DNA of 17,688 nt from NCBI GenBank assembly GCA_030638685.1, contig DAOWED010000075.1, positions 1-17,688 on the forward strand. The letters are read 5' to 3'. The number at the start of each line of letters is the position of its first letter. Position 1 is the first letter of the stretch. Made by a program: the position numbers and the translations under genes. Below, piece after piece: positions 1 through 17,271 of the stretch. Below the pieces are notes generated by a model. It was not told where the DNA came from. It made no database searches and was given only the letters and a program-made list of their open reading frames with translations. Source of the DNA: Candidatus Heimdallarchaeota archaeon. Its GTDB lineage: Archaea; Asgardarchaeota; Heimdallarchaeia; Heimdallarchaeales; DAOWED01.

Positions 1-29
1 AGAAAAAGAAAAAAGGTTTAATTAAAAAG

Positions 30-710
30 TTGGTTTCAAAATTCAAGAAAGATTCAACACCAGATGACATGAAATTAGTAAAAGGAACAATTGGAGACTT
101 AGGAGAAGTAGTTGTCGTGATGTCAGATATTCTTGAAAGCTTCGATGTTGAGTATGAGAATGAAGTTGAAAATAAAAGAAATGCTGTCGATAAAGTATGG
201 GTAAAACTACCTAAGTTTATGCAAAGCAGACATCTTAAAGAACAAACAAGAGAAAGGGAAAGAATTAGTAAAGGGAAGAAACAATTAACCACCGTTAAAT
301 CATCATTAAGTAATATGATGACGGTGATTGAGCAATCACCAGATAATTTTGAAAAAGTAGCAGAAACATATGTTGAAGTTGTTTCACCTGCAGGAATAAC
401 TGATGAGAAGGCAGAGGAAATCGAAGAAAAGATAAATGCAATGCAGCTTGAATTTGTTCAATATATGGAAGAAATGCAGAAACAGTTACTTCTACTAAGA
501 ACAACAATGGATCATATGGCTCAAGATTTAGGAGAACATGGAGTTAAAATAGATCATATTACTGAAAAAGTAGAAGAAGTATCAACTAAGCTAGATTCTG
601 TCCAAGAAAAACTTAAGGAGATAAGTAGAAAACTTACAAAAAACAGACTTTTGATGTTTGCATTAGCAACAGGAGTAACTATAGTACTACTCAAAGCAAT
701 ACTGCCATAA
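30..710 (+). CDS. Tail-anchored coiled-coil protein with a SNARE-like (syntaxin/Qa-like) motif. It may be 5'-incomplete.
   Basis: 226-codon ORF. The C-terminal 20 aa (LLMFALATGVTIVLLKAILP, nt 648-707) form a single TM helix ending at the stop, preceded by the basic linker RKLTKNR. Upstream (nt 465-623) a 53-aa heptad stretch has hydrophobic residues at all expected 3-4 spaced positions around H170. The segment DLGEHGVKIDHITEKVE resembles syntaxin-1A LVESQGEMIDRIEYNVE as I recall it. The tracked start is TTG at 30 with no convincing SD. The frame stays open to nt 3, so the true start may lie upstream of the window. An alternative ATG is at 69. Confidence 0.6.
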   Translation: MVSKFKKDSTPDDMKLVKGTIGDLGEVVVVMSDILESFDVEYENEVENKRNAVDKVWVKLPKFMQSRHLKEQTRERERISKGKKQLTTVKSSLSNMMTVIEQSPDNFEKVAETYVEVVSPAGITDEKAEEIEEKINAMQLEFVQYMEEMQKQLLLLRTTMDHMAQDLGEHGVKIDHITEKVEEVSTKLDSVQEKLKEISRKLTKNRLLMFALATGVTIVLLKAILP

Positions 711-738
711 ACAAATCACAAACAGAAACTGATGTACA

Positions 739-2118
739 TTATTCAAAATCAACATGTTCTTTGTTGGCATGAGAAAAATCAATCGAGAGAAAATCAGACC
801 ATTGAGGAGTAGAATAAGTTTTTTTCTGTTTAGCCAGATCATATCTTGAGAAAGGCATTGTAAGATGTCTATGTGCTCCAATGGGAGGTAAATATCTTCC
901 TTTTTCAAGCGATCTAGATTCAAAAACGGGAACTTTGGTTGCAGAGGGATCTTTAATTTTACACTTTTTACACTTGTAACCGGCATTAACACCATCACTT
1001 TCCATTCTTTTATTACAGGAGGGACAAGGTGGATTAACCAATCGAGAAAAGGGTGCAACTTCAATAACATCTAATCGTTCAATATTAAAAGTGGGTAATT
1101 CACTAGGGGAAACACCTCTAATACTTCCACCTACAATTAATCGGTCATCAGGTCGAAGTTCTTTGACGGTAGATCGAAATGATTTAGAAGGTTCATAAGC
1201 CAATGCATGAAATTGAGAACCATCACTTGATCGTTCTAAAGTAAGAATAGTGTGACCTCCAGCAATAATATCGGGTTCATTAACAACTTTTGCTTCAATT
1301 AAACTCACTTCGTAAGGCTCAAGTGAGGGGAAAGCATTCACTAAATGTTCATCGGTTCCTTGATTAGTTCTAAAAACACACCAACCTTCAATTTTTTCCA
1401 GTTGTTTAATCACAGAATTGGCTGAAATAAGGAGATTAGCAGACTCTCCTCTGATTCCGTAAAGAACAGGATCGGGTCCATTTGGTACGGAAGCAATTCG
1501 ACCAGTATCAGAATCATATGAAGAAAAGGTTTGAAAAGAAGAATCATCGAGTCTAATAAAAGATTCACGGTCAATTCTTCGCTTAGTACCTCTATTATTA
1601 GCGATCCGGTACGCCAATAATTCATAAGTAAAGTCATTTTTTAGCTCATTGCCAATAGCTGCTAATGAGCCGATAAGACCTTGACCGGTTCCCTTGAAAG
1701 AATAGTAAACAGAGGGGTGATCAAGAAGAGAAATAGTTTCATCAATCGTTAAAACCTTAATTAACGCCCGTTGAGCAAAAGAAGATAACTCAGAGCCTAA
1801 TTCACCAACCAAAAGAATAAAACCGGGGTTAGTCATTTCATGATCAGCAGTGCGATTGAAAAGCCAAGTACTGAGTTCGTTATGAATTTTTTCAAAATTA
1901 AGAGAGGAGGGGACCAAAAAAGTTAGAGCCACACTTCCATTACCTCGCGTCTTAAAAGGAACATTAGGGTTGTTTCGGATCAAGCGGGGGAAATCGAGGG
2001 GCTTCCAGCCCTTTTCTTTGAGAATAGAGAGAAGTGAAAAAGCAAGATGAGTTGTACAGTTACCAAGAGGACTATCAGTGTCATCAAAACCAAGAGTAAC
2101 TTTCACAAACTGAGACAA
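739..2118 (-). CDS. tiaS: tRNA(Ile2) 2-agmatinylcytidine synthetase TiaS
   Basis: The N-terminus VTLGFDDTDSPLGNCTTHL...FPRLIRNNPNVPFKTRGNGSVA matches the TiaS signature (IGIDDTDS..GMCTTYL, FPRLIRLNP.IPYKTRGNG). GLIGSLAAIG and PVLYGIRGES are conserved. The C-terminal zinc ribbon CPSCNKRMESDGVNAGYKCKKCK matches the A. fulgidus TiaS CPSCGRRMESAG..FRCKKC. TTG start with GGTGG 7 nt upstream. Confidence 0.9.
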   Translation of the reverse strand: MSQFVKVTLGFDDTDSPLGNCTTHLAFSLLSILKEKGWKPLDFPRLIRNNPNVPFKTRGNGSVALTFLVPSSLNFEKIHNELSTWLFNRTADHEMTNPGFILLVGELGSELSSFAQRALIKVLTIDETISLLDHPSVYYSFKGTGQGLIGSLAAIGNELKNDFTYELLAYRIANNRGTKRRIDRESFIRLDDSSFQTFSSYDSDTGRIASVPNGPDPVLYGIRGESANLLISANSVIKQLEKIEGWCVFRTNQGTDEHLVNAFPSLEPYEVSLIEAKVVNEPDIIAGGHTILTLERSSDGSQFHALAYEPSKSFRSTVKELRPDDRLIVGGSIRGVSPSELPTFNIERLDVIEVAPFSRLVNPPCPSCNKRMESDGVNAGYKCKKCKIKDPSATKVPVFESRSLEKGRYLPPIGAHRHLTMPFSRYDLAKQKKTYSTPQWSDFLSIDFSHANKEHVDFE

Positions 2119-2230
2119 AGTACAACCACCATTACTTAGTAAAATATAGAACTGTTATATTAAAAAAAACTGGCTTTGTCTACTTTTGGAAGCAGAAAAG
2201 CTAGATACTGCGAGAAAAAAGGGACTAAAT

Positions 2231-2389
2231 CTATTCCTGTTCTTCCCCTTCAATCCACTCATGAGTGCAAGCACGACAAATGTACTTTTTACGATAAATA
2301 GGTTTGTGGTTGAAATAGCCAACCGGTTTACTCTTATCCTCTACAGTCTTAACATTTGTTTTACCACAATTTCTGCAAGTTATAGCCAA
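2231..2389 (-). CDS. Small (52 aa) C4 zinc-ribbon protein, function unknown. It is not in the supplied ORF track.
   Basis: My own translation of the minus strand gives M(TTG)AITCRNCGKTNVKTVEDKSKPVGYFNHKPIYRKKYICRACTHEWIEGEEQE*. It has two CxxC pairs (C5/C8, C38/C41). A GGTGAT SD (rc of 2395-2400) sits 5 nt upstream of TTG at 2389, and an in-frame stop lies just upstream at 2396-2398. The overlapping plus-strand ORF 2186-2434 has an implausible composition. Confidence 0.6.
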   Translation of the reverse strand: MAITCRNCGKTNVKTVEDKSKPVGYFNHKPIYRKKYICRACTHEWIEGEEQE

Positions 2390-2422
2390 TTTATATCACC
2401 TTTTTATTATCTTAGTATCGAA

Positions 2423-2436
2423 AGCTATCGATAGCT
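2423..2436. promoter_or_regulatory. Perfect 14-bp palindrome AGCTATCGATAGCT upstream of the small zinc-ribbon gene, a candidate operator
   Basis: The sequence is self-complementary. It starts 34 nt upstream of the TTG start (2389), just distal to an A/T-rich TATA-like stretch (aagataataaaaaa on the minus strand). Confidence 0.25.
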
Positions 2437-2550
2437 ATATCACAGAAAGTTAGATAATAAGCCTTTTGCTAAAACATAATCAAAACTATTCCATTATTCT
2501 TTTTTTTATACTTAGTTTTTTTCTTTGCTTTACTAGTTTATTCACTAATA

Positions 2551-3171
2551 TTACTCATTAATTTCATTCCCACAATTATAACAAAATTTTTGCTCACTGG
2601 CCATCTGCTCTATTCCACAATTTGGACACGTATCAGTTGCTTCTAGCTTTTTTTCTTTCGGTGGAGCTATTGTTTCTTTTACGGTTTGAGCTCTTTTAAA
2701 TGGAGATCTGCACGAATAACAAAATTTAGCTATTTCCGGATTCATGGCCTTACACTCTAGGCACTGTTTTGTCGCTCTTGATATGTGTTGCACTGGAACT
2801 GGACTTGTTGTTTTTTCTTGCTCGCGTCCTCTATAAGCGCCACTTTTGTCTTCGGGGATCTCTTTCCCTAACAGCTTCATAAACCAATCATAGCCTGATG
2901 GCCACAATCGATATGAATAATAAAGGGAAACAACTACAAAAACAACTTGCAAAAGATAACCAAAAATTAACACGCTTGGATCTCCTCCTGAGTTTTCAGC
3001 TTGGATTCTCCATGGAAGCAAAACTACTACGAAATAACTGAAGAGTGAATAAACTGCAAAAATGAAAAGAACAATTCCGGTTGTTTTGCGCTCAAAGATT
3101 GAAGATCCACAATTAATACAACGGTAACTGTTGGGAGTATTAGTTGTTCTACAGTTGCGACATTTTTTCAT
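2551..3171 (-). CDS. Membrane protein with three zinc-ribbon (double-zinc-ribbon-type) modules and two TM helices
   Basis: The three modules are CRNCRTTNTPNSYRCINCG (N-terminal), CLECKAMNPEIAKFCYSCRS and CPNCGIEQMASEQKFCYNCGN (C-terminal). Two hydrophobic helices (GIVLFIFAVYSLFSYFVVVLLPW, VLIFGYLLQVVFVVVSLYYSY) lie between them, which places all zinc ribbons on the same, presumably cytoplasmic, side. Confidence 0.7.
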   Translation of the reverse strand: MKKCRNCRTTNTPNSYRCINCGSSIFERKTTGIVLFIFAVYSLFSYFVVVLLPWRIQAENSGGDPSVLIFGYLLQVVFVVVSLYYSYRLWPSGYDWFMKLLGKEIPEDKSGAYRGREQEKTTSPVPVQHISRATKQCLECKAMNPEIAKFCYSCRSPFKRAQTVKETIAPPKEKKLEATDTCPNCGIEQMASEQKFCYNCGNEINE

Positions 3172-3212
3172 TAAGCTAATGATTACTTGAGCATTTAAAA
3201 CAAATACGATTT

Positions 3213-3235
3213 AAAAGAAAGGAGGGGGGGAAAAA
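3213..3235 (-). terminator. Pyrimidine-rich tract (T5 C7 TCC TTTC TTTT on the minus strand) just after sdhB, a possible archaeal oligo-T terminator
   Basis: The minus strand reads tttttccccccctcctttctttt beginning 8 nt after the sdhB TAG (3244-3246). Archaeal termination commonly uses T-runs. The downstream gene has its own TATA-like ttttaaat ~25 nt before its ATG. Confidence 0.3.
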
Positions 3236-3243
3236 CGTTGATT

Positions 3244-3969
3244 CTACTTACCAAACAATCTTGAAAAGCGTTTCTTGACTGCTTGACGCTTCAGATAAGC
3301 AATTGCTTCTGTAGGATTAAGTTCTTTTGGACAAGCTTCACCGCAATTAAACGCCGTGTGACATCGCCATACACCATGATTACCATTGATTAACCCTATT
3401 CTTTCATCGGTCATTGCATCACGGCTATCTCTTACAAACCTAAAAGCCTTCAGAAGAGCTGCTGGTCCGAGATATTCTGGATCAGTCCATACTGTTACAC
3501 ACGAAGAGTAACATGAACCACACAAGATACAATCAATTGAGTTGCCCATTAGTTCTTTTTCCTCAGAAGACTGGATCACTTCTTTTTCCAGCGATTTCTT
3601 CAGGATTACAAAAGGATTCACTGCTCTGATCTTTGAAAAGAATGGCTCCATGTCTATTACTAGGTCTTTTATTATTGGATAGAAAGGTAGAGGTTCTATT
3701 TTTATTGTACCAGTGTAGAAGGATATCTGTTCTTGACAAGCTAGTACATATTTCCCATTAACGTATGCTGCATCAGATCCACATATACCGGCTCTGCATG
3801 CAAATCTAAAGGCTAAACTTCCATCCAAGTTTTCCATGATGTCGAATAATCCTTCAAGAAGAGTTTTACCCTTTTTACGATCCACTTTAAAGTCTTCCCA
3901 GTAGGAACCTTGTTCAGCGTTTTCGGGGTCAAATCTTTTAATTCTAAAAATTACTTGTTCACTCATCAT
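3244..3969 (-). CDS. sdhB: Succinate dehydrogenase / fumarate reductase iron-sulfur subunit
   Basis: Three cluster motifs are present: CRAGICGSDA...C (2Fe-2S), CILCGSCYSSC (4Fe-4S) and CHTAFNCGEACPK (3Fe-4S type). I prefer the ATG at 3969 (MMSEQ...) with GGAGTGAT directly upstream and 8 nt after the sdhA TAG. The tracked start at 4005 would overlap sdhA by 28 nt. Confidence 0.9.
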   Translation of the reverse strand: MMSEQVIFRIKRFDPENAEQGSYWEDFKVDRKKGKTLLEGLFDIMENLDGSLAFRFACRAGICGSDAAYVNGKYVLACQEQISFYTGTIKIEPLPFYPIIKDLVIDMEPFFSKIRAVNPFVILKKSLEKEVIQSSEEKELMGNSIDCILCGSCYSSCVTVWTDPEYLGPAALLKAFRFVRDSRDAMTDERIGLINGNHGVWRCHTAFNCGEACPKELNPTEAIAYLKRQAVKKRFSRLFGK

Positions 3970-3977
3970 TATCACTC

Positions 3978-5699
3978 CTAGTATTTTCTCTCCTCTGGTT
4001 CCCAAATTGAGAGGTCCACCTTTGAATATGATATTTTGCAGGTATCATTCTTGACATCGTAATGAGCCATGGTATGTTTCATGAACTTTTTGTCATTTCT
4101 TTTCATGAAGTCAGTTCTGCAATGTGAGCCTCTAAATTCTTCACGTTTGAGTGCTCCTTCAACGATGACTTCTGCTAAATGTAGTTGTCCACCAAGCATA
4201 TACAATCTGGCTAATTCCCAGTTATAGATTCTACCAGTATACTTGACCTTAATTTTCTTGTAGCGTTCCTTAAGGTCCTTAATAGTTTCTTGTGCTTTTG
4301 TTATGCCTTCCTTATTACGGAAAACACCTAGGTTCTTACTCAATACTTTTTGCATTTCAGCCATGAGTTTAAAGCCATCTTCTGACCCTTCACCATTGAA
4401 GAGATTTTGAATATTTGCTTCAACTTCATCTGCTTCTTTTTGGAGTACTTCTAATGCGTCATCATCCACTTTATTTGCTTCTACAAACTCAGAAGTTGAA
4501 ACACCTGAGATTTTACCAAAAACACAGCATTCGAGTAAACTGTTTCCTCCTAGACGATTAGCTCCATGAACAGAAATACAACTGCATTCACCTGCGGCAT
4601 ACAACCCCGTCATTTCAGATTCAGTCTTATCATTAACTGAAATTCCACCCATTGTATAGTGAGTAGAGGGTCTAATAGGTGCGGGTTCCTCTATCAAATC
4701 TGTTCCAGCAAAACGAATTGCAAGTTCTCTAACTTGAGGTAAGCGGCTTAGAATTTGTTCAGCAGGAAGATGAGTTAAGTCCAGTTCAACATAATCACCA
4801 TCGGGTCCACATCCTCTTCCTTCATTTATTTCAGTCTGGATTGATCGTGCAACAATATCTCGAGGAGCTAGTTCCATTTTATCAGCGGCATAATTTTTCA
4901 TGAAACGCTCTCCATCCTTGTTTCTTAGATAGCCACCTTCTCCTCTTGCTGCTTCTGAAAGAAGAACAGCATTTGTTGCCAAACCAGTTGGATGAAATTG
5001 TACAAATTCCATATCTTTCAGAGGTACACCTTTGAAGTAGGGCAATACAAAACCAAATCCACTATTATGCCAAGAATTAGTAGTGTCCTTGAACACTCTT
5101 CCGGCTCCTCCAACTGCAAAAATAACTGCAGATGCTTGGAAAATTTCTAACTTTCCAGTAATGAGATTTATTGCTACTACTCCTTTGATTTTATTCTCTT
5201 TTTCACCAATTGAAAGAACTATTCGGTCTTCATACATAGGAACTTCGTGGTATAAACATTGTTCATACAACCCCATCATTATTACAGCACCTGTTTTATC
5301 GGTTGAATAACAAGTTCGAGGATATCCTGCTCCACCAAAAGGTCTTTGAGCTATTTTTCCATCCTCTGTTCTTGAAAAGGGTATTCCCAGTTTATCAAGC
5401 TCAAGTATCCTTGGGATAGCTTGTTCTGTCATTGCCAGAACAGCTTTTTGATCAGCAAGATAATCAGATCCTTTTGTAGTATCAAATCCGTGTCTTTCAG
5501 CAGAATCATCTTCTGCTACATTAGCTAAAGCAGCATTGATTCCGCCTTGTGCAGCAGAACTATGAGAACGATATGCTTGAGTAATTGAAACGGTTGCTAC
5601 ATCTTTTCCTCTTTGAGCCGCTTCTACTGCGGCGGAAAGACCAGCCAGACCTGTTCCAACTATCAAAATATCATGTTTAAAGATTTCAACATCAGCCAT
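3978..5699 (-). CDS. sdhA: Succinate dehydrogenase / fumarate reductase flavoprotein subunit
   Basis: DILIVGTGLAGLSAA is the FAD dinucleotide-binding motif. RSHSSAAQGGINAA carries the His used for covalent FAD in SdhA/FrdA. HPTG, RLGGNSL and EFRGSHCRTDF are conserved family blocks. At 573 aa the length is typical. Confidence 0.95.
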   Translation of the reverse strand: MADVEIFKHDILIVGTGLAGLSAAVEAAQRGKDVATVSITQAYRSHSSAAQGGINAALANVAEDDSAERHGFDTTKGSDYLADQKAVLAMTEQAIPRILELDKLGIPFSRTEDGKIAQRPFGGAGYPRTCYSTDKTGAVIMMGLYEQCLYHEVPMYEDRIVLSIGEKENKIKGVVAINLITGKLEIFQASAVIFAVGGAGRVFKDTTNSWHNSGFGFVLPYFKGVPLKDMEFVQFHPTGLATNAVLLSEAARGEGGYLRNKDGERFMKNYAADKMELAPRDIVARSIQTEINEGRGCGPDGDYVELDLTHLPAEQILSRLPQVRELAIRFAGTDLIEEPAPIRPSTHYTMGGISVNDKTESEMTGLYAAGECSCISVHGANRLGGNSLLECCVFGKISGVSTSEFVEANKVDDDALEVLQKEADEVEANIQNLFNGEGSEDGFKLMAEMQKVLSKNLGVFRNKEGITKAQETIKDLKERYKKIKVKYTGRIYNWELARLYMLGGQLHLAEVIVEGALKREEFRGSHCRTDFMKRNDKKFMKHTMAHYDVKNDTCKISYSKVDLSIWEPEERKY

Positions 5700-5940
5700 T
5701 TACCATCATCTATAAAATGTATTAATTATTCCGTTTAGTGCCATCAATTATGTTTTTTAAACTCTACGCTAGTAATCAAATGTTTGAATTTTGCATTTAT
5801 TAATAATTTAATGGCAAATTGGTGAATTATATAACTAGCATTGTTCAAAATGTCCTTTTAATAAAAAAATTACTCTTTGCAATAATATTATAAAACGAGT
5901 AAATGTAGTATATTTAAGAATAGAATTTTGGTGAGAAAAA

Positions 5941-6384
5941 ATAACTAATACATGGAAAATAACCTTTGAAGCAACAAGTCCAGTACCTGATGATGATTTA
6001 ATCTTAGAGTTCGTTGATGCTAGCGATCTTATAGGAGAACCAGTATTAAATGAGACTTTTATAGATCACATTGTTCAAAACGCAAAAATACATGATTCTT
6101 ATTCCATTTTTAGAAATGTAAAAGCTATTAAATCTGATACTGGAGAAGATCTAACTGGTCGAGCAATATGGGCCCTTCTTGGTATAACTAGTGAATCTGA
6201 AGAAAAAATAGGCTTTTTACTTGGAAGTTTACAAAAAGGTGGATATCATGTCATCGGTTTTTGGCCCAAAGAGTTTGCTGCCAAAATTGATAATGATGAA
6301 ACTATTTGGAGAGATAAAATTCAACAGTTTGGTGCCGACCCAAGTTTTTGGCGTCAAGTCGATCTCATAATCGGTTATGAGTAG
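5941..6384 (+). CDS. Hypothetical soluble protein (~147 aa) in an open frame lacking any canonical start codon. Possible ATA start or frameshifted gene.
   Basis: My own translation of frame 1 runs from the TGA at 5932-5934 to the TAG at 6382-6384: ITNTWKITFEATSPVPDDDLILEFVDASDLIGEPVLNETFIDHIVQNAKIHDSYSIFRNVKAIKSDTGEDLTGRAIWALLGITSESEEKIGFLLGSLQKGGYHVIGFWPKEFAAKIDNDETIWRDKIQQFGADPSFWRQVDLIIGYE*. It has no in-frame ATG, GTG or TTG. GGTGA at 5930-5934 lies 6 nt before ATA at 5941. The composition looks protein-like, and a stop-free run this long is unlikely by chance in AT-rich DNA. A hairpin plus T-run follows the stop. Confidence 0.5.
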   Translation: MTNTWKITFEATSPVPDDDLILEFVDASDLIGEPVLNETFIDHIVQNAKIHDSYSIFRNVKAIKSDTGEDLTGRAIWALLGITSESEEKIGFLLGSLQKGGYHVIGFWPKEFAAKIDNDETIWRDKIQQFGADPSFWRQVDLIIGYE

Positions 6385-6390
6385 GAAGTT

Positions 6391-6412
6391 GAAGGCGCCT
6401 CCAGCCTTTTTT
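6391..6412. terminator. Short hairpin plus T-run between convergent genes, a possible bidirectional terminator
   Basis: gAAGGC-gcctcca-GCCTTttttt: the 5-bp stem pairs 6392-6396 with 6404-6408 and is followed by T6 (6407-6412). An A-run follows at 6415-6420, which reads as a T-run on the minus strand just after the NYN gene stop at 6423-6425. Confidence 0.35.
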
Positions 6413-6422
6413 ACAAAAAAGA

Positions 6423-6926
6423 TCAATCTATATTTAATTCAAACACGTGATCAGCTAAACCTTTGATAGCAACTGAAAAACCGGGATCAAAACCGGCTAC
6501 AGCAACCTCTTTCCCTTTTTCCTTAAGTTTCATTATAATTGGTGAAATACGTGCATCTCTAGAACAGATTAAGGTTAAATCGGTTGTTCCTTTATGATAT
6601 TGCTCCAAAGCATGAATCCCCATAGTTAGAGAAAGATCCCCGTGTGAAACAATTGGAGTATAACCAGAGTTAACTACTGCATCCATTAAACCATTGGAAG
6701 CTTTCTGATCAAGGAAGACTTTCTTTTCAACGATGGCACCTAAGAAGTTGGCAACCTCATTAATATCCTCAAGTTTAACTCGATGTCCTTTTACTGTGCG
6801 TAATATATTAGGTCCATCTACAAAGATAACTATTTTTTTTTCTCTTTTAAATAGAGATTTTAGAGTAGTCCACCTGCTAGATAACGTAGGTGATTGATCG
6901 TCTTTTTCTAAATTCATTTTAATCAC
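6423..6926 (-). CDS. NYN / LabA-like (PIN-related nuclease fold) domain protein
   Basis: KIVIFVDGPNIL (the N-terminal Asp motif of NYN domains), SHGDLSL, and LTLICSRDARISPIIMKLKEKGKEVAVAGF...LADHVFEL match the NYN pattern (vLvSgDsDf.pl...lr..Gk.V.v.g...l...ad.f..l). The second Asp of the SgDsD block is Arg here. The tracked GTG start at 6926 overlaps the upstream gene by 8 nt. An alternative ATG at 6917 (MNLEK...) is preceded by AGTGAT and overlaps that gene's stop codon (TAAAATG). Confidence 0.7.
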   Translation of the reverse strand: MIKMNLEKDDQSPTLSSRWTTLKSLFKREKKIVIFVDGPNILRTVKGHRVKLEDINEVANFLGAIVEKKVFLDQKASNGLMDAVVNSGYTPIVSHGDLSLTMGIHALEQYHKGTTDLTLICSRDARISPIIMKLKEKGKEVAVAGFDPGFSVAIKGLADHVFELNID

Positions 6927-8865
6927 TAGTCGTTTCTGAAGCGCTTATCAAACTATCAGGAGGCGTCATTTGTTCGTTCAAACGAACTACCGTGGTATCC
7001 TCGAGAGTTTCTGTTGTCACAAAACCAAATAATTCTAATTCAGCTACTGACTTTCGGACAACAGCAGGATGCATGGTAAGCATACGAGCAATATCCTGTT
7101 CCTTTAATTCAGAACTCAGTCCGTGCAGAAGGAAAATAATCATGTATTTTTGATCATTAACAAGATAGTTTTGAAGATAGGAGCCGAGTTCTTCCAAATG
7201 AACCAATTCATTTTGGTAAGAAACGAGTTTTTGTTCTAACTCATCTTTAACCTCAACATTCATTGTAATTTTGCCTTCATATCCTGACAATTCCTCTTTT
7301 AGAGTTGTAAGTTCGGTTTCAAGAACGCTCTTTTCTTCAATCATCAGTTCATGTTTGGAAAGAGAAGAATTGAATTCATCTTGGATGGAAGTTTTTTCAG
7401 TGGAAACCGCATCATATTTTTCTTGTATTGCGTCTAATGAAGTAGTAAATTCCTCCTTTTCTTTAGCAAGAGAAGAATAGTCATTCTTTACTCGATTAAT
7501 TTCGCTTTCCGTTTCTGAGAGTGATGCCTTCAATTCGGTTAGTGAACTTTCATATTCAGCTTTTTGAGTTGTAGATTCCGACATAATGCGTTCTCTTTCA
7601 GAATCCCATTGGCTTTGAATCTTAGAAATTTCGGTTGGGAACACTTCTTCACTAACTGTTGATTCTGACTCCAAGGATTGAAGTTTTTCATGATAAATTT
7701 GATTTTGTGCATCCAAAGCAGTCTTCTCTGATTCTAATTGAGAATGGGTCTTTTCAAGTTCGGTTAATTTATTTTCCACTGAAGTTTTGACTTCTCTAAG
7801 CTCGGTTAACTCATCGTTCAATTTAGTTGTTTCTTGATCAAGATTAAGTAATCTTGTTTCTAAACCATTCTTTTCTGTAGAAACAGTTTTGTGAGCAGCT
7901 TCTAACTGAGTTAGTTTCTCATTCACTGAAATACTATCTGTTTCACTGCTCTCCATTCTTACTTTCACTTGTGAAAGCTCTAAGTTAAGAGTTCTAATCT
8001 CTTCATTCTTACTAACCATTTCATTTCTAACACTGAACTGTTCTTCCCTTGATTTTTCAAGTTCTTCTTGAAGTGATTTAAAAGCATCACTTTGCTCCTT
8101 ATACTGTTGACTGATTAATTCTCGTTCTCTATTGCTATAATCAGAAAGTTGATTCCTTAAGGTTTTTAGTTCTTCTTGTTGACGATCTATTGTTGCTTTA
8201 AAGCGGGAGATGTCATTTTGTGTATCATCAATGTGTGTCTCCCTATCACCTAAAGCTTCCTGCATCTCTTCTTGCTCAAGACGCATTTGCATCAAAGTTG
8301 CTCCAAGCTGCATATTTTGGCTTTCAAGCCTTTCAATTCCGGCTTCAAGATTAGTTATTTCTGAATTTTTGAGTCTATTTTCTTCACTCAAAGAATTCAT
8401 TTGGTCGACAAGATCCACGTTTTCAGTGGATAGATCAGAGACTGTTTCTGACTGTTCAACAAGAGAGGCTTGATATTGAGCTACTCGTGCTTCTGACAAA
8501 CTGCTTTCAACAGGAGATTGTGTTTGTAAACGTCGGAGTTCTTCTAAAAATTCAGCCTCTATAACGTTTCCTTGTGCTAGTCCTGTTTCAATTCCCTCGC
8601 GTATCTTAGAACCTGATTCTGTCTCAATTTTGAGATAAACGGTTCTTAAGAAATGTATCAAACCATCCTTAAATCGGTTTGAAATTTCAGCAATTTCAGA
8701 GGCAGGATATTGTGAAACTCCAGGAGTTAGTGAGCTTGCTCTTAATTCCTCAGCTTTAGCTCTTAACTGGTCTTCATGCAATAATCTTTGATCTCTCATA
8801 TCTTTCAAATAGTCAAGAATTACTTCTCGAATCACTGTTACTCTGATTTCTTGAAAATGTTCCAT
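6919..8865 (-). CDS. Long coiled-coil protein (648 aa) with an N-terminal helical domain and a C-terminal winged-helix (MarR/ArsR-like) domain
   Basis: Residues ~130-560 are E/K/Q/L/S/T-rich heptad sequence with recurring units, for example VNEKLTQLEAAHKTVSTEKNGLETR and VENKLTELEKTHSQLESEKTALDAQ. The C-terminus KYMIIFLLHGLSSELKEQDIARMLTMHPAVVRKSVAELELFGFVTTE..VVRL looks like a wHTH. GGTG lies 7 nt upstream of the ATG. Confidence 0.75.
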   Translation of the reverse strand: MEHFQEIRVTVIREVILDYLKDMRDQRLLHEDQLRAKAEELRASSLTPGVSQYPASEIAEISNRFKDGLIHFLRTVYLKIETESGSKIREGIETGLAQGNVIEAEFLEELRRLQTQSPVESSLSEARVAQYQASLVEQSETVSDLSTENVDLVDQMNSLSEENRLKNSEITNLEAGIERLESQNMQLGATLMQMRLEQEEMQEALGDRETHIDDTQNDISRFKATIDRQQEELKTLRNQLSDYSNRERELISQQYKEQSDAFKSLQEELEKSREEQFSVRNEMVSKNEEIRTLNLELSQVKVRMESSETDSISVNEKLTQLEAAHKTVSTEKNGLETRLLNLDQETTKLNDELTELREVKTSVENKLTELEKTHSQLESEKTALDAQNQIYHEKLQSLESESTVSEEVFPTEISKIQSQWDSERERIMSESTTQKAEYESSLTELKASLSETESEINRVKNDYSSLAKEKEEFTTSLDAIQEKYDAVSTEKTSIQDEFNSSLSKHELMIEEKSVLETELTTLKEELSGYEGKITMNVEVKDELEQKLVSYQNELVHLEELGSYLQNYLVNDQKYMIIFLLHGLSSELKEQDIARMLTMHPAVVRKSVAELELFGFVTTETLEDTTVVRLNEQMTPPDSLISASETTSD

Positions 8866-9050
8866 AGATTACACCTATTATGTAATTGTGTTTTGATCAA
8901 ACAAAGTGATATTAGATCTAAAATATTAAAGAATTCCGCAAAAAGCACTTTAGCTGAATTTTTAACAAGGGCTTTGCTAATCGATTTTTTACTAGTATTA
9001 TAAGATAATTAACTAAAACTAACTAAAAACTGGAGAGAATCCAAATAAGA

Positions 9051-9656
9051 TTACCATTCATCATCTTCTTTTTCTTCACTACCTGCTTCAAAAGGATCAT
9101 GAGCATCATCTTCTGGGATAATAGCGTATGGATCATCTTCAAGAATTCTTTCGATATTATCTTCCTTAACAAGTTGAGCTAATTTCTTGCGATGATTTGT
9201 TTTCTTTTTTGCTGTAGGGTTTATTTTCAGTTCAGGATTTTCAGTTATCCAGGCTTGAATTTGATCGAGTATTTCTTCTCGATCTAGTAAATCAAAGAAG
9301 TCATCATCATCTTCCAGTGTTATTTTAAAAATCCAACCAACGTATGGTTCCTCATTTAGCTCTTCTGGATTAAGCTTTATCTCTGAGTTTTCTTCAACTA
9401 TATTACATGGGAATGGAGATTTAACAACTAGTTCATCTTCAATTGAAGTAACCGTGAAAAACTCATCACCTTCATCAAATTCTTCACTCTCTGTGAAATA
9501 GATTGATATAATGTCCCCTAGAATCCTCTGAGCAAAATCAGTAATTCCTATGGAATACGAATCTTCTTCATAGTCTCGTTTTACCCATAAAATTTTATCA
9601 ATATAGGAAATGTCTTCTGGTAAATCTAAATCATTGACATCCATTCTTTTCACCAT
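9051..9656 (-). CDS. Glycine-cleavage H-protein-like (lipoyl-domain fold) protein lacking the lipoyl-lysine, with a basic/acidic C-terminal extension
   Basis: IGITDFAQRILGDII, SPFPCNIVEEN..LNPEELNEEPYVGWIFKI match GcvH blocks (VGITDHAQ..LGD, APVSGEIV..N..L...PELVN..PY..GWIFKI). The position of the lipoylated Lys (ESVK) reads TSIE, with E73 at nt 9438-9440. About 70 extra C-terminal residues end in ...EDDAHDPFEAGSEEKEDDEW. An alternative start at 9644 (MDVND) has GGTGA 5 nt upstream. Confidence 0.7.
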   Translation of the reverse strand: MVKRMDVNDLDLPEDISYIDKILWVKRDYEEDSYSIGITDFAQRILGDIISIYFTESEEFDEGDEFFTVTSIEDELVVKSPFPCNIVEENSEIKLNPEELNEEPYVGWIFKITLEDDDDFFDLLDREEILDQIQAWITENPELKINPTAKKKTNHRKKLAQLVKEDNIERILEDDPYAIIPEDDAHDPFEAGSEEKEDDEW

Positions 9657-9769
9657 TATGCTAAGATTTGCCTCTAATGAATTAATCGTAAAGGGGCTTT
9701 TAAGGAGATCGATTGACCTATAACTAGTTTTTGCCTACTAAAAACAATTCAGCCTTTTATATTTTTTCT

Positions 9770-10858
9770 CTAGATTTGCTCAGACAGATGTCTTGAAAAA
9801 GGAAAAGAAATTATTCCTAACAATATTACAAATATGGGGCCCAAAAACGTGTTTAGCAAGGTCAAAGCCCCCGCCTCAGACGGGGTTAATCCTACAAGTT
9901 CAAGGAACAAGGCGCTTGAAAGTGTTCCTCCACCGATTCCTGCGGGAGTAAATGAAACCATTCCAACAACCATTGCCACAGAAATAACACCAAGCCCTTC
10001 AACTAAAGTAATGGGTTCAGTGGATAGAGCATGTGATAGAAGAACAACAACATATCCTTCCAAGATCCATCTTAGTGTTGAGCATAAGTAAACGAATAAT
10101 AAGACAAATTTTTTCTGCTGTATTTTTTTAGTTGAAGAATAGAATCCACCAATTCCTTCTTCTACCCTTTCTCTATTATTTTTCCAAAATGACAGTTTCA
10201 TGGAAGTGAAAAATCGGTCAACTAACCCGTAGATCCAGCGGCCAAAAACAGGGATATTGATAATTAGAAAAAAAATGATCAAAAGCACTAAAATCATTAC
10301 AACCAAAGTATTAAGTGAAACTCTAACCAAATCCATTCGTTCATCAGAAAGATTAGGTAAGTTATCTGCTAGTAAATCAGGGATAACGAAAATTAAGATG
10401 AGCGTAAATGAAAGACCAATTACAACTATATCCGCGAGACGTACAATTAGTATTGCGGCAAGAGAGTGTGTGGGAGCGATTTTTGCTCCTCTATTAAAAA
10501 TTTCAACTGCCCCTAAATCGCCTGATTTTGCAGGGAAAATAACCCCTATTCCATACCCAGCTAAAAAAGTAATTACAAATCGATTAATTGGTACAGGTCC
10601 GTGAAGAGGTTTGAGAGCAAAATAGACCCGTAAACCTCTTAAAAACAAACTGGAAAGCATTAGAATTATTGCTAGCAGAAGAAATTTCCATTTTATAGAA
10701 AGTGAGAAAACTTCAGACCATTCAATCCTAATAACAAAAATTGTTAGAAAAAGAATAGCCAATAGGCTCATTATGATGTCTCGCCATTTATTGCTTTTAT
10801 AAAGCTTGAACTCATTTTCTTTAGTTATGTCTTGCTTATCTTGCGAAATGTAGATCAC
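9770..10858 (-). CDS. Polytopic membrane protein, flippase-like domain (UPF0104 / MprF LPG-synthase-TM-like)
   Basis: About 8 predicted TM helices. The N-terminal pattern (short cytoplasmic start, TM, W..v......KWKFLLLAIILMLSSLFLRGLRVYFALKPL) resembles the family signature with the conserved R after TM2. GTG start 16 nt after the upstream gene's stop. Confidence 0.55.
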   Translation of the reverse strand: MIYISQDKQDITKENEFKLYKSNKWRDIIMSLLAILFLTIFVIRIEWSEVFSLSIKWKFLLLAIILMLSSLFLRGLRVYFALKPLHGPVPINRFVITFLAGYGIGVIFPAKSGDLGAVEIFNRGAKIAPTHSLAAILIVRLADIVVIGLSFTLILIFVIPDLLADNLPNLSDERMDLVRVSLNTLVVMILVLLIIFFLIINIPVFGRWIYGLVDRFFTSMKLSFWKNNRERVEEGIGGFYSSTKKIQQKKFVLLFVYLCSTLRWILEGYVVVLLSHALSTEPITLVEGLGVISVAMVVGMVSFTPAGIGGGTLSSALFLELVGLTPSEAGALTLLNTFLGPIFVILLGIISFPFSRHLSEQI

Positions 10859-10874
10859 CGTATTGATTAGTGTA

Positions 10875-12203
10875 TTATTGCAGCATTGAGCTTATTTCTT
10901 TAAATGTTTGATCCAAGGCTTCAAGTGTATGATCCAATAAGTCCTTTTTATGTTCTGATGAAAGTGCACCTAAACCTCCTCTAACAAAGACACCTTTGTT
11001 TATCAAGCTCATCTGATGAAAAGTGTTCAAGTTTGGTAGGTTTGTTTTTTTGCTTTTTATTTTTTCTAATGAATTATAATTTATTGACATCAAAGAAGCT
11101 GCTCCTGATATTTTTACAGGTAAGGAATTATCACTAACCAAATCCTTTATGCTTTTTACGAAATCTTCACCAGTTTTGTTTAGGGTGTCATAGAAAGCAG
11201 ACCCTCTTTCTTTCAAAGCATTCAAGGTTGCTAATCCAGTAGATGAACTTAAAGGATTTCCACTAAAAGTTCCGCCTCCTACCCAGACAGATTCTCCATT
11301 TTCTGGATTAGCTATTGCCATTATCTCCTTTTTTCCACCATATGCACCGATCGCTAATCCTCCTCCTATAATCTTACCAAGACAAGTTAAATCAGGAGTA
11401 ACCCCAAAATAACCTTGAGCTGAAGAATAGCTTAACCGAAAGCCGGTTATTACTTCGTCAAATATTAGTACTGCACCATACTTGGTTGTTAAGTGTCTCA
11501 CTGTTTGTAAAAACTCTTTTGAAGCTGCTTCTACTCCACCTGATATTAACACCGGTTCAAGGATTACAGCAGCTATTTCATCACCAAATTGCTCAAAGCA
11601 TTTCTTTATTTCGTCAATATCATTATAGCTACAAGAAATAAGGTTTGGATCCTTCACAAGACCTCTGTACTTAACGCCAAATGGAGGACTTATATCTTTG
11701 AAAAGCTGGGAATTCCCTCCATGCCAGCCCCCTTGCATTTTAACAACTAATGAACGATGAGTAAATCCTCTTGCTAATCTCACCGAGTACGATGTTGCTT
11801 CAGAACCAGAACTACAAAATCTAAGTTGTTCAATGCTAGGTGTTGCTTTTCTTATCTCTTCCCCTAACTTAAGAGCTCGTTCGTTAACTGTTCCAAAATG
11901 GGTTCCTTCATGAGTTGCTTCTACTATTGCATCAATAAGTATGTCAGGTGTATGTCCTAGAATGTTGGAATAATGCCCTATCCAGAAATCTATCAATCTT
12001 TGTCCATCTTCTGTATAGAGAAAAGCTCCTTTAGCTTTTTTAATGAACGGCGGATAAAGACCTAATTTAGGAAAATCCCATGTTCTAATATTGTGACTTA
12101 TTCCTCCTGGAAAAAGGTCAACTGCTCTCTGCCAAAGTTCAGAAGAGCGTTTATTGTTGTTAAGATAAATTTCATTATTATCTAAGTTGTCCATACACGT
12201 CAA
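10875..12203 (-). CDS. Class-III PLP aminotransferase, glutamate-1-semialdehyde 2,1-aminomutase (HemL)-like paralogue
   Basis: FPGG...R, SSGSEATSYSVRLARGFT, FDEVITGFRLSYSSAQGYFGVTPDLTCLGKIIGGGLAIGAYGGKKEIM (PLP-Lys in LGKIIGGG) and GTFSGNP align block by block with E. coli HemL. The canonical PGGVNSPVRAF is replaced by PGGISHNIRTWDFPKLGLYPP, so the substrate may differ. The tracked start is TTG at 12203. An ATG alternative is at 12194. Confidence 0.8.
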   Translation of the reverse strand: MTCMDNLDNNEIYLNNNKRSSELWQRAVDLFPGGISHNIRTWDFPKLGLYPPFIKKAKGAFLYTEDGQRLIDFWIGHYSNILGHTPDILIDAIVEATHEGTHFGTVNERALKLGEEIRKATPSIEQLRFCSSGSEATSYSVRLARGFTHRSLVVKMQGGWHGGNSQLFKDISPPFGVKYRGLVKDPNLISCSYNDIDEIKKCFEQFGDEIAAVILEPVLISGGVEAASKEFLQTVRHLTTKYGAVLIFDEVITGFRLSYSSAQGYFGVTPDLTCLGKIIGGGLAIGAYGGKKEIMAIANPENGESVWVGGGTFSGNPLSSSTGLATLNALKERGSAFYDTLNKTGEDFVKSIKDLVSDNSLPVKISGAASLMSINYNSLEKIKSKKTNLPNLNTFHQMSLINKGVFVRGGLGALSSEHKKDLLDHTLEALDQTFKEISSMLQ

Positions 12204-12311
12204 ATTATGTGTGAATCTAAGCTTTGAAAGAGCTTTCTATTTTTCACAAATTGTTTATGGATTCTTTCTAGGAAATATCTTAAATGAGATGATTCAAAGT
12301 AAAATTAAGCT

Positions 12312-13997
12312 ATGGAATCATCGAATAAAAACGCCCTCAGAAAACAGATACTTATCTTCATCCTTCTTCTTGTTAATATCATAGTAAGGCTCCTTCCAAC
12401 TTTGAGTTCAAGAACTCTCTGGGGAGTGGATGCTTGGGACTATATTTATTATATTAAACAATCAATTGAGGGTTCCCAGATTATTTCTCCGGAGTTACAT
12501 GTTCCCGGTTTCTATATTCTGATGACATCCTACTGTCATATTGTTGACATCGATCCTGAAATAGCTTACCTTTTTCTTCCTCAATTAGTTCTAGGCCTTC
12601 TTACTTTAGAGATGTTCATTCTTGCAAGAGTTCTAACCAAAGATGATTCAGCTGGAATAATAGCTCTCCTTTTAACTAGTAGCGGTGGAATTTATGTTCT
12701 TAGAACAATGCTTGTTATTCCAGAATCTTTTGGTTTAAGTTTAATCCCCCTTGGTTTATGGTTATACTGGAAAATGCTTACTATTAGAACTAAAGAGTGG
12801 TCAATTTCATTTCTTATGATCGGTACTACTATTGTTTCTATGCATCATTTATCTGGAGGAGTTTTTCTATGTGCGATAAATTTCATTACTCTTTGGTTCA
12901 GTCTTAACAAGAACCATCGAAAAGATATTTGGGCAAAGGTTATCTTCTTGAACGTTGTAACGTTGATTATTTGGTCTATTACAAGCAAAAACTATCCTTT
13001 TATCGTTGCTCAAAGAGGGTCTCAGTATTTTCTAATTCTAGCACTAGTGATGATTGGTATTTCCATCATTCTTTTTTCAACTAGAGCTATGAAGCCTAGA
13101 GTAATCAAATTAATTCAGTCCGAACTCGTTCAACAATCTTGGTCTTACGTTCTATTCATAACAATTATTCTTCTTTCTTTATGGGTTGGCCTGCGAGCTG
13201 ATTTATCTTTCAAAGTTATAGCTTCATTTCTTCCTGTATCTCTTTTTATTCCCTTTACTCTTGTATGTATCCAAAAAGATTCATTTCAACTTCAACATGC
13301 TAGATCGTTTTTCCTTGGGATGATTTTTTCATATTTCATACTCTTTTCATTAATTGCCTTTAATCCATCAATACAGACACTATTAGGCAGATATGCAGAA
13401 TTCTTGATACAGATTGCTGTTCTTGGAACAGCTATGGGAGCTTCTATAAAACTGAAAGATAAGAACGGAAGGAGAAAATTATATGGATTCACTTTAGCAA
13501 TATTAATGATTACCAACTTTCCTCTTGCATATCCTGATCCCGACATTTGGATGGGTACAACTTTCAATTACTATAGTGAAGAATTAGAGGCAGCAGAATG
13601 GCTTGAAATAAGGATTGATGATCTTGGACTTGATCCAGAAATATCTATAATTGATACGGATAATCGTTTGGGAGTGATGCTTAGGGGGCACGTGGGATTA
13701 AATAGCAGTTGTGGAGAGCCAAGTGATAGCGAACTTGCTTACCTTATTCGTGAAAAACTATCTTTAATTGAAATTGCTTCATACCACTTTTCAAATCATT
13801 CTTTTATTTTCCTTTCACAAGTAATAGTGGATTCGACTTTTGCTATGGGTAAATTTGGGCATGGTCGAACTTTTTCAACAAGTGATATTGCACTTGAAGT
13901 AAGTTCCTACTTTATTTATGCCTTAAATCAACACCCTCAACTTGAAAAAGTGCTAGACTTAGGTAGCGTTTGGATATGGGAGATTAACAATAGCTGA
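12312..13997 (+). CDS. Large polytopic membrane protein with a C-terminal soluble domain, a possible GT-C-fold glycosyltransferase (PMT_2/ArnT/STT3-like architecture)
   Basis: About 12-13 hydrophobic helices are followed by a ~150-aa soluble domain. The first loop after TM1 carries the acidic/aromatic motif LWGVDAWDYIYYIKQ, reminiscent of the first-loop Asp motif of GT-C enzymes. No WWDxG motif is present, so it is not a canonical AglB/STT3. Confidence 0.4.
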   Translation: MESSNKNALRKQILIFILLLVNIIVRLLPTLSSRTLWGVDAWDYIYYIKQSIEGSQIISPELHVPGFYILMTSYCHIVDIDPEIAYLFLPQLVLGLLTLEMFILARVLTKDDSAGIIALLLTSSGGIYVLRTMLVIPESFGLSLIPLGLWLYWKMLTIRTKEWSISFLMIGTTIVSMHHLSGGVFLCAINFITLWFSLNKNHRKDIWAKVIFLNVVTLIIWSITSKNYPFIVAQRGSQYFLILALVMIGISIILFSTRAMKPRVIKLIQSELVQQSWSYVLFITIILLSLWVGLRADLSFKVIASFLPVSLFIPFTLVCIQKDSFQLQHARSFFLGMIFSYFILFSLIAFNPSIQTLLGRYAEFLIQIAVLGTAMGASIKLKDKNGRRKLYGFTLAILMITNFPLAYPDPDIWMGTTFNYYSEELEAAEWLEIRIDDLGLDPEISIIDTDNRLGVMLRGHVGLNSSCGEPSDSELAYLIREKLSLIEIASYHFSNHSFIFLSQVIVDSTFAMGKFGHGRTFSTSDIALEVSSYFIYALNQHPQLEKVLDLGSVWIWEINNS

Positions 13998-14020
13998 AAT
14001 GAACATATTTCTAGGCTATA

Positions 14021-14644
14021 CTATTCACCTAATTCTTCCAAGATCTTAGCTAACTGAGGAGGTAATGCTTCGTTTTCTTTAAGACGTGAAAGATCGCTTA
14101 TCAAATCAATGTCATACCAACTAGCGATGCTTTCAATTTCAGTATAACGAAAATGATTCTCTTGGAATTGAGAAAGGTAGAGACTTGCTGAATGGGGTCC
14201 ATATGAAAATCTAAAAGTTGTACTAGCTCTTGCAGCAAGTATACTTGTTCCACCATCATGAGAAGGACAAATAACCGCATCATTTACTCGAAGAAGATAA
14301 TAAATAGTTGTTAGTAGTCTTGATGAAAGGTTAGGGAGGTCACCCATCACTACTATGTATTTTTCCGGATTTAATTGTTTAACGGCTTTAGAAATTGCAT
14401 TATTTAGATCAAATCCTTCATCATAGATAACTTTGAAAGAATAGTCTGTAAGTTCATCCGGTAAATTTCTATCCGCGGTAAGTAAATAGACTTCATAAGG
14501 TATAGAAAGTTCATTTATTGTATCAAATACTCGTTTCGTCATAGTTAGAACTAAACTATCTATAGATTGTGAATTACTTGGACCAGAACGTAACCTTTGC
14601 TTTGAGCTCGATGAACCACGCACAGGAACCAGTATTGTTACCAT
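14021..14644 (-). CDS. cofC: 2-phospho-L-lactate (or PEP) guanylyltransferase CofC, F420 biosynthesis
   Basis: ILVPVRGSSSSKQRL (PVK...aKsRL), DEGFDLNNAISKAV, IVVMGDLPNL, ICPSHDGGTSIL, FSYGPHSASLY and YDIDLISDL follow the CofC/FbiD conserved block order. Start ATG lies 6 nt after the upstream gene's stop. Confidence 0.8.
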   Translation of the reverse strand: MVTILVPVRGSSSSKQRLRSGPSNSQSIDSLVLTMTKRVFDTINELSIPYEVYLLTADRNLPDELTDYSFKVIYDEGFDLNNAISKAVKQLNPEKYIVVMGDLPNLSSRLLTTIYYLLRVNDAVICPSHDGGTSILAARASTTFRFSYGPHSASLYLSQFQENHFRYTEIESIASWYDIDLISDLSRLKENEALPPQLAKILEELGE

Positions 14645-14650
14645 TCTTTC

Positions 14651-15415: not shown

Positions 15416-15416
15416 C

Positions 15417-16346: not shown

Positions 16347-16378
16347 TATTACCCAGCCCAGTTACTTAGAAATTGCCT

Positions 16379-16945: not shown

Positions 16946-17271
16946 TTGCTATCCTCATATTGGGTTTTCAATATCAATTTAATAAGCTATTGTATCATTG
17001 ACTTGTAAAGATTCAATTTACGCTTTTCGCTTTGATTACATAAATTTCTGTTGTGAGAGATTATGCATAATTTACTAAAACTTGAGCATTTAGTAGACTA
17101 TGATACTTTGTGTTTAACTAGATTGCTTAACCTCGTCTTACTTCACAGAAGAAGCCTTCATCATAGCACGTTAACAAACAAATGTGTCAAGTTAATTAGT
17201 GGTAAGTTAAATATAATCTAGCGAAACAATAAAAAAGTAACCTTTTTATTACTCCTTAGGAGAATAAATCT

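Follow-up and report, generated by a model that had tools for sequence, protein, structure and literature searches.

Vesicle fusion depends on SNAREs in every eukaryote, and where these proteins came from bears on the rise of the endomembrane system. The only prokaryotic ancestors proposed for them are proteins of Heimdall-group archaea, and this proposal has been based on four sequences in a single study, which named them 'Heimdallarchaeota prototypic SNAREs' (HPS; Neveu, Khalifeh, Salamin and Fasshauer, Curr Biol 2020; bioRxiv 10.1101/810531). The four proteins HPS1 (PWI47941.1), HPS2 (OLS22354.1), OLS23218.1 and RMG36020.1 were selected for a complete SNARE motif with a glutamine at its centre, a transmembrane domain joined to it by a short linker, and a helical N-terminal region, for which a three-helix bundle was proposed. 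The motifs of HPS1 and HPS2 were found to form complexes with neuronal Syx1, SNAP-25 and Syb2 in native gels and size exclusion experiments in vitro, while the family was placed outside all four SNARE types with syntaxin 6 as the closest human SNARE (bioRxiv 10.1101/810531). Here, we analysed a stretch of 17,688 nucleotides (nt) from a Candidatus Heimdallarchaeota archaeon (contig DAOWED010000075.1 of assembly GCA_030638685.1, positions 1 to 17,688 of the forward strand; 'the window'), at the 5' edge of which lies a gene for a protein that a previous sequence-only reading had regarded as an archaeal SNARE-like protein with a histidine in the zero layer. We found that the gene encodes a tail-anchored, cytoplasm-facing and conserved coiled-coil protein, a Kariarchaeaceae-type orthologue of the HPS family.

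The reading frame 3..710 on the forward strand is already open where the window begins, with nt 3 corresponding to codon 8 of 242. Its translation is 100% identical to a protein of 242 amino acids (P0001; MCG3219709.1/MCK5050064.1) from a Candidatus Heimdallarchaeota archaeon/Kariarchaeaceae metagenome-assembled genome (MAG), which is labelled 'hypothetical protein' and of which the N-terminus MTNEHQK lies upstream of the window edge. On the longer contig L011, an ATG is found at position 1230 and the start of the window at position 1249, so that 19 nt of the gene are located outside the window, as had been suspected, and the TTG at nt 30 is hence an internal codon rather than the start. Residues are numbered here on the full-length protein, i.e. 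the number of the sequence-only reading plus 16, which turns its H170 into H186. A database search yielded orthologues with 89% (P0002, Kariarchaeaceae), 83% (P0003) and 78% identity (P0004, a fragment). Compared to the gene of P0002, the ratio of non-synonymous to synonymous substitutions (dN/dS) is 0.11 at a dS of 0.46; the gene is real and under purifying selection.

Full-length similarity connects the protein to the published family. In BLASTP comparisons, we obtained E-values of 1e-29 for HPS2 (32% identity over 230 amino acids) and 2e-29 for HPS1 (30% identity over 231 amino acids), with both alignments being co-linear from the N-terminus to the transmembrane helix; the sequences of HPS1 and HPS2 were taken from the supplement of Neveu et al. 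and contain machine-reading errors. On the basis of this similarity over the entire length, the protein almost certainly belongs to the HPS family. The link to the 2020 study, made in the sequence-only reading, was thus correct, and an unrelated coiled-coil family, named there as a possible alternative, did not emerge. The four published proteins and the window protein are alike in their length of about 235-245 amino acids, the order of N-terminal domain, motif, linker and anchor, the origin in the Heimdall group, the 16 layers of the motif and the glycine following the zero layer. The single C-terminal transmembrane helix with its short linker and the 53-residue motif of 16 layers agree with two of the features by which HPS were defined, but the window protein carries His186 in place of the central glutamine.

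To determine the breadth of the family, we ran phmmer exhaustively against 1.84 billion cluster representatives; word-index homology searches yielded just 4 and 9 proteins, and a profile search, which scored only 8,000 candidates, was unsuited to a census. The phmmer search returned 26 matches, about 20 of which are full-length relatives of 233-250 amino acids, with HPS1-like (P0011) and HPS2-like (P0006) representatives falling into the same family. The sources of these full-length relatives are public genomes and metagenomes. Where a source is named, it is a MAG labelled as Heimdallarchaeota, Hodarchaeales/Hodarchaeota or 'Promethearchaeota'. The labels Thor- or Hermodarchaeota occur in a few cases; these sequences share clusters of at least 90% identity with members labelled Heimdall- or Promethearchaeota and probably reflect loose labelling. 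A rough neighbour-joining tree separates an HPS1-like and an HPS2-like group, and the window protein with its orthologues forms a clade of its own within the latter (30-37% identity to other HPS2-like members). The family is wider than published: at 50% identity it comprises about 20 clusters, which fall into two subgroups. The kind of protein has nevertheless been known since 2020 and its novelty was overstated in the sequence-only reading; what we add is modest and comprises a further clade in Kariarchaeaceae, a natural zero-layer histidine that arose at least twice and evidence against a syntaxin-like N-terminal domain.

The heptad motif itself was confirmed in every detail. Its 16 layer residues, in order M M L L M M L H I I V V L V L I, follow the alternating 3/4 spacing exactly; V, I, L, M or F occupies 15 of the 16 layer positions compared to three of the 37 other positions of the motif. 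When the 53 residues were shuffled 200,000 times, this layer pattern was never equalled, and the remaining six registers reach only 1-8 of 16, showing that the pattern is far beyond chance. In an alignment of 20 family representatives, all layers are hydrophobic with the exception of the zero layer and of small or polar residues at layers +3, +4 and +6, and the transmembrane anchor is kept in every full-length member. Homologues lacking register or anchor, which would have spoken against a SNARE-like protein, were thus not encountered in this alignment. The consensus of the family motif reads L.EQGVKLD.ID.K.D.V..KLD..Q..L.KIS.KLT.NR and is followed by the transmembrane helix. In the window protein, as previously described, a basic linker leads to this helix, which constitutes the last 20 residues and runs straight into the stop codon without any residues beyond it.

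At the zero layer, the 20 representatives carry glutamine in 16 and histidine in four cases, the latter being restricted to the clade of the window protein and one separate lineage (P0010) of the other subgroup. The histidine thus represents a lineage-specific replacement of glutamine, which occurred independently at least twice. This qualifies the earlier description of a non-canonical zero layer: His186 is real and aligns with the zero-layer glutamine of syntaxin 7 and syntaxin 1A, but it is a clade-specific substitution and not a trait of the family, and it departs by one residue within a family of otherwise unambiguous homology. His186 is encoded by CAT, also in the 89%-identical orthologue, which is one transversion away from a glutamine codon (CAA/CAG to CAT in the third base). 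Could such a single third-position change merely stem from faulty sequencing or assembly, or be a neutral polymorphism confined to one genome? As an error, this is refuted by the identical protein in three independent assemblies (ENA, Logan and NCBI). A neutral explanation is also very improbable given that histidine is kept in four sequences of 68-89% identity, with a dS of 0.46 between two of the genes, and appears again in the unrelated branch P0010. The central polar residue of the HPS family can hence be histidine as well as glutamine. The literature that was searched contained neither a report of a SNARE with histidine in the zero layer nor any later study on the HPS family.

We then asked how far the resemblance to eukaryotic SNAREs extends. 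Against the Pfam family SNARE (PF05739; gathering cut-off 26.8 bits), a match is present that begins at layer +1, crosses the linker and ends within the transmembrane helix; the score thus draws on the layout in addition to the coil. Ten of the 20 family members match this profile, all of them below the threshold, while seven match V-SNARE_C and four Synaptobrevin. Only the consensus of the family hidden Markov model (HMM) passes the cut-off, with SNARE as top Pfam family (30.9 bits, E 2.7e-7), keeping in mind that consensus sequences inflate scores. HPS1, which was validated in vitro, reaches 19.3 bits and thus less than the window protein. In the profile check proposed by the sequence-only reading, matches to the SNARE family thus exist, with the consensus alone above the cut-off, while syntaxin N-terminal domains were not matched. 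Searching all PDB sequences with a family profile of the motif region, we obtained matches to syntaxin 7 (1gl2_B; E 1.1e-4), syntaxin 6 (E 2.2e-4), SNAP-25 (E 4e-4), syntaxin 1A (E 5.9e-4), Monosiga syntaxin 1 (E 2.2e-3), syntaxin 13 (E 2.6e-3) and SNAP-29 (E 6.4e-3). In the two alignments inspected at single-residue level, that to syntaxin 7 and an hhalign alignment of the motif profile to the single syntaxin 1A sequence, the Q/H column is placed on the zero-layer glutamine; the latter alignment has the expected register, but its probability of 2.4% is meaningless.

An ungapped scan of offsets from -14 to +14 against seven SNAREs, of which six sequences were entered by hand and only that of syntaxin 7 was taken from search output, gave offset 0 as best for six of the seven. 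Scores at this offset were highest for syntaxin 6 (53.6), syntaxin 7 (44.0) and the C-terminal (40.2) and N-terminal (31.9) helices of SNAP-25, and lower for syntaxin 1A (27.4), VAMP2 (23.4) and Sso1 (20.0), the last being ambiguous with 20.9 at offset -7. The top score of syntaxin 6 agrees with its naming as the closest human SNARE by Neveu et al. The same comparisons corrected an earlier assignment to the Qa-SNARE signature. The zero layer is indeed in register with that of syntaxin 1A, but the SNAREs matched best belong to different types (syntaxin 7, Qa; syntaxin 6, Qc; SNAP-25, Qb) and there is no preference for Qa. We thus rejected a Qa-type syntaxin, also in view of the absent match to Habc domains and of the placement of HPS outside the four types by Neveu et al.

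Several results weigh against a SNARE-type function and would fit a generic archaeal tail-anchored coiled coil, e.g. a scaffold, tether or cytoskeleton adaptor, the SNARE likeness of which is convergent and which forms no SNARE-type bundle and mediates no fusion. On this reading, any heptad coil beside a transmembrane anchor would resemble the SNARE layout. The window protein itself stays under the Pfam gathering score (22.8 bits for the window translation, 20.9 bits for the full-length protein), as does every individual member with a match, and many unrelated coiled-coil families are matched similarly. In the PDB search with the family profile, designed antiparallel coiled coils, which lead the list, reovirus sigma-1 and chemoreceptors rank with or above SNAREs, and a search with the single sequence of the window protein gave weak matches, mostly to designed coils. 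In the offset scan, the tropomyosin control scored 28.5 and thus higher than three of the seven SNAREs (syntaxin 1A, VAMP2 and Sso1), which limits the test, and offset -7 often nearly equals offset 0. Foldseek returned no SNARE or syntaxin with either the full AlphaFold model or the N-terminal domain (best E 0.11 and 0.75, respectively), and the latter domain is probably not Habc-like. The window protein moreover lacks the defining central glutamine, no partner gene is linked to its locus, and a cultured Heimdallarchaeion with internal membranes has been reported without clear SNARE homologues. Neveu et al. themselves allow for tethering or bending of membranes rather than fusion (bioRxiv 10.1101/810531).

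Since generic coiled coils and tropomyosin score similarly and Foldseek gave no SNARE, sequence similarity alone is suggestive, but not decisive. Other features are more difficult to reconcile with a generic coil. Exactly mid-way in 16 otherwise hydrophobic layers stands a single conserved polar residue (Q or H) with an invariant glycine after it, as in Q-SNAREs; the motif is in register with six of the seven SNAREs, with syntaxin 6 and syntaxin 7 well above the tropomyosin control; the family consensus exceeds the Pfam cut-off with SNARE as the top family, and the spacing of motif, linker and anchor fits the Pfam model through the anchor. In addition, the orthologues HPS1 and HPS2 bind neuronal SNAREs in vitro. 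We therefore use the term 'SNARE-like' on the combination of layout, a conserved polar layer with glycine at the exact centre, register and the published biochemistry of orthologues. A generic coil with convergent likeness is the main rival explanation, but appears unlikely to us. As a whole, we favour, with reasonable rather than strong confidence, a Kariarchaeaceae-type HPS orthologue that acts through a SNARE-type bundle.

Eukaryotic Q-SNAREs, with syntaxin 6 and syntaxin 7 as the closest, share with the window protein the tail anchor, 16 layers around one polar residue, a similar 'QG..D.I' core that aligns in register and a basic juxtamembrane linker. The linker comprises about 10-11 residues in syntaxin 1A and VAMP2 compared to eight in the window protein. 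Unlike these SNAREs, the window protein remains below the Pfam cut-off, has a central histidine instead of the glutamine or arginine typical of the superfamily, permits no assignment to Qa, Qb, Qc or R and lacks a Habc, longin or other known SNARE N-terminal domain in Pfam and Foldseek searches. Chlamydia IncA and the SNAREs of Legionellales such as LseA are likewise prokaryotic membrane-anchored coiled coils that were proposed or shown to engage in SNARE-type bundles, and the soluble domain of IncA (6e7e) was among the non-significant Foldseek matches (E 0.25). The membranes on which IncA acts are those of the host, however, and its transmembrane domain is a hairpin and its fold non-canonical. 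The SNAREs of Legionellales were described as recent transfers from eukaryotes with strong SNARE HMM scores and mostly CAAX lipid anchors (bioRxiv 10.1101/810531). In contrast to such bacterial proteins, that of the window belongs to the archaeon's own gene set, in a free-living organism, and is only distantly SNARE-like.

As bacterial SNAREs can be acquired from eukaryotic hosts, as shown by Neveu et al. (bioRxiv 10.1101/810531), a true eukaryotic SNARE that entered the MAG by contamination or recent lateral transfer had to be considered for the window protein as well. This explanation is effectively refuted. The flanking genes are archaeal (TiaS, CofC/CofD, an Rpb5/RpoH-type subunit and succinate dehydrogenase-type subunits), and the same gene with the same synteny is present in an independent Kariarchaeaceae MAG. 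None of the 26 phmmer matches is eukaryotic and all full-length relatives with a named source are from MAGs labelled as Asgard archaea, while the similarity to eukaryotic SNAREs is weak. The GC content is 35.5% across the whole window, which is AT-rich and archaeal in character. An archaeal SNARE-like protein of the Heimdall group, as originally suggested, is hence well founded: a full-length homologue of HPS1 and HPS2 in a Heimdallarchaeota/Kariarchaeaceae MAG.

But how would such a protein act? Judged from its homology to HPS1 and HPS2, the motif would assemble in the N- to C-terminal direction into a parallel four-helix bundle, either homomeric or with a further partner; by analogy with these orthologues, formation of a bundle seems rather probable. 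With anchors located in two membranes or membrane regions, the bundle would tether these and might also bend or fuse them, in line with the proposal of Neveu et al. That the protein tethers or fuses membranes in vivo is unproven and, judged by analogy, plausible but somewhat doubtful. The polar layer at the centre would hold the helices in register, and histidine would be a near-conservative replacement for glutamine as a polar, hydrogen-bonding side chain of similar size is kept. A quite improbable, more speculative variant assumes that, in the Kariarchaeaceae clade, the four histidines in the zero layer of a homomeric bundle bind Zn2+ or Ni2+ or titrate near neutral pH and thereby switch assembly or an NSF-free disassembly. 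If this were true, such a pH- or metal-switched zero layer would be a natural regulatory solution not known from eukaryotic SNAREs, and the recurrence of the replacement in the P0010 branch would reflect selection and not drift. The overall picture of HPS as candidate SNARE ancestors remains unchanged by our analysis; natural histidine and glutamine variants and further targets are now at hand for the biochemical and cell-biological tests that cultured Heimdallarchaeia begin to permit.

For the N-terminal region, the sequence-only reading had suggested a regulatory, Habc-like domain. The full AlphaFold model, based on the alignment of 20 sequences, is all-helical with moderate confidence (predicted local distance difference test, pLDDT, 72.8; predicted template modelling score, pTM, 0.65) and contains helices at residues 2-22, 27-63, 68-73, 83-117, 123-134, 141-185, 191-218 and 222-240. 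When modelled alone (pLDDT 83.9, pTM 0.66), the N-terminal domain shows helices at residues 9-23, 27-63, 83-118 and 123-134. Helices are thus predicted, in line with the N-terminal region of HPS, but only two of them are long, with about 36 residues each, compared to the three-helix arrangement proposed for the family. A Foldseek search of this domain against the PDB gave nothing significant and no syntaxin Habc domain among its matches; the best of these non-significant matches are long helical hairpins (p85 iSH2, bMERB, CHMP3 and IMD). The Pfam syntaxin N-terminal domains (Syntaxin PF00804/Syntaxin_2) were not matched even at E-values up to 10, and the only Pfam match in this region, STX6_10_61_N with the family consensus (E 0.23), was graded as noise. 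Because neither Foldseek nor Pfam links the domain to syntaxin N-terminal domains, the suggestion of a Habc-like domain found no support. Judged from the models, the domain is probably not a syntaxin-type Habc bundle, and a long helical hairpin is probably the simplest reading, with a split three-helix arrangement as a possible variant.

In the AlphaFold monomer, the motif helix is broken exactly at residues 186-190 (H-G-V-K-I; window 537-551 (+)), i.e. at the zero layer and the invariant glycine, and the two halves of the motif therefore fold back into a compact bundle in this model. The broken helix may represent a closed state or an artefact of modelling a single chain. The N-terminal domain may fold back on the motif in an autoinhibited 'closed' state, which so far appears in the monomer model only. 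At the extreme N-terminus, members of the HPS2-like subgroup carry a run of at least five lysines followed by an amphipathic basic helix, in the window protein KKKKKGLIKKLVSKFKK (window 1-47 (+), residues 7-23). Judged from its sequence, this conserved basic helix could bind membranes or a partner; no description of it was found in the parts of Neveu et al. that were consulted. The coordinates of the features of the gene are compiled in Table 1.

Table 1. Features of the SNARE-like gene and its product in the window.
Feature	Position (nt)	Strand	Remarks
Coding sequence of the SNARE-like tail-anchored protein	1..710	+	5'-truncated by 19 nt; stop codon 708-710
Predicted N-terminal polybasic helix KKKKKGLIKKLVSKFKK	1..47	+	full-length residues ~2-22; AlphaFold, low-to-moderate confidence
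Predicted N-terminal helical domain	60..383	+	two long helices (27-63, 83-117), short helices (68-73, 123-134); AlphaFold
53-residue SNARE-like motif, 16 heptad layers -7 to +8	465..623	+	full-length residues 162-214
Zero-layer His186 (CAT), followed by Gly187	537..542	+	Gly187 invariant in 20/20 representatives
Basic juxtamembrane linker SRKLTKNR, 8 residues	624..647	+	family consensus KISxKLTxNR
C-terminal transmembrane anchor LLMFALATGVTIVLLKAILP	648..707	+	Kyte-Doolittle 19-residue maximum 2.35

The SNARE-like gene is monocistronic and located between a divergent gene upstream and the convergent TiaS gene downstream, an arrangement that is common to the genome of P0002, an independent Kariarchaeaceae MAG. 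The divergent gene (L011:13-1086 (-)) encodes 357 amino acids and belongs to no Pfam family. Further neighbours in the window have housekeeping or metabolic functions and include, besides TiaS, a zinc-ribbon protein, Sdh/Frd-type subunits, NYN, GcvH, an LPG-synthase-type membrane protein, an aminotransferase, CofC/CofD, a Dus-like protein, an Rpb5/RpoH-type polymerase subunit and a BpsA-like protein. No neighbour is conserved across the whole HPS family. A paralogue within 4 kb was found neither in L001-L010 nor in the window, and the window contains no Rfam families and no tRNA.

A search for related loci yielded ten, nine of which are HPS1-like in synteny, while none is from the clade of the window protein. 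A Roadblock/LC7 (LAMTOR/MglB-type) gene and a TFIIE-alpha gene lie downstream of the SNARE-like gene, on its strand, in nine of ten HPS1-like loci of Hodarchaeales/Heimdall genomes, e.g. at L002:4804-5310 (+) and 5366-6025 (+), with the same arrangement in L001, L003, L004 and L006-L010; it is absent from the clade of the window protein. Roadblock proteins are regulators of small GTPases. The linkage may be only synteny among close relatives. Two 'Promethearchaeota' MAGs contain HPS-family paralogues in tandem, at L015:4213-4920 and 4936-5637 (+) and at L017:3189-3842 and 3912-4628 (+). The two genes on L015 (P0020/P0016) are 15 nt apart, with four genes for Arf-family GTPases on their flanks within 5 kb, and the pair on L017 is of the P0053/P0048 type. 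Neveu et al. had reported only one HPS per genome (bioRxiv 10.1101/810531). Such tandem paralogues may allow heteromeric bundles and may even represent a first step from homomeric to heteromeric SNARE complexes.

Two larger genes of the window belong to no Pfam family: the first (6919-8865 (-)) encodes 648 amino acids with weak coiled-coil matches and adjoins the NYN-domain gene, the second (12312-13997 (+)) encodes 561 amino acids. The Rpb5-type protein encoded at 16379-16945 (-) comprises 188 amino acids, with the Rpb5 C-terminal domain at residues 114-186 (E 5.7e-23) fused to an N-terminal restriction-endonuclease-like (Mrr_cat/NA-iREase1) domain. This two-domain arrangement recalls that of eukaryotic Rpb5; archaeal RpoH is short.

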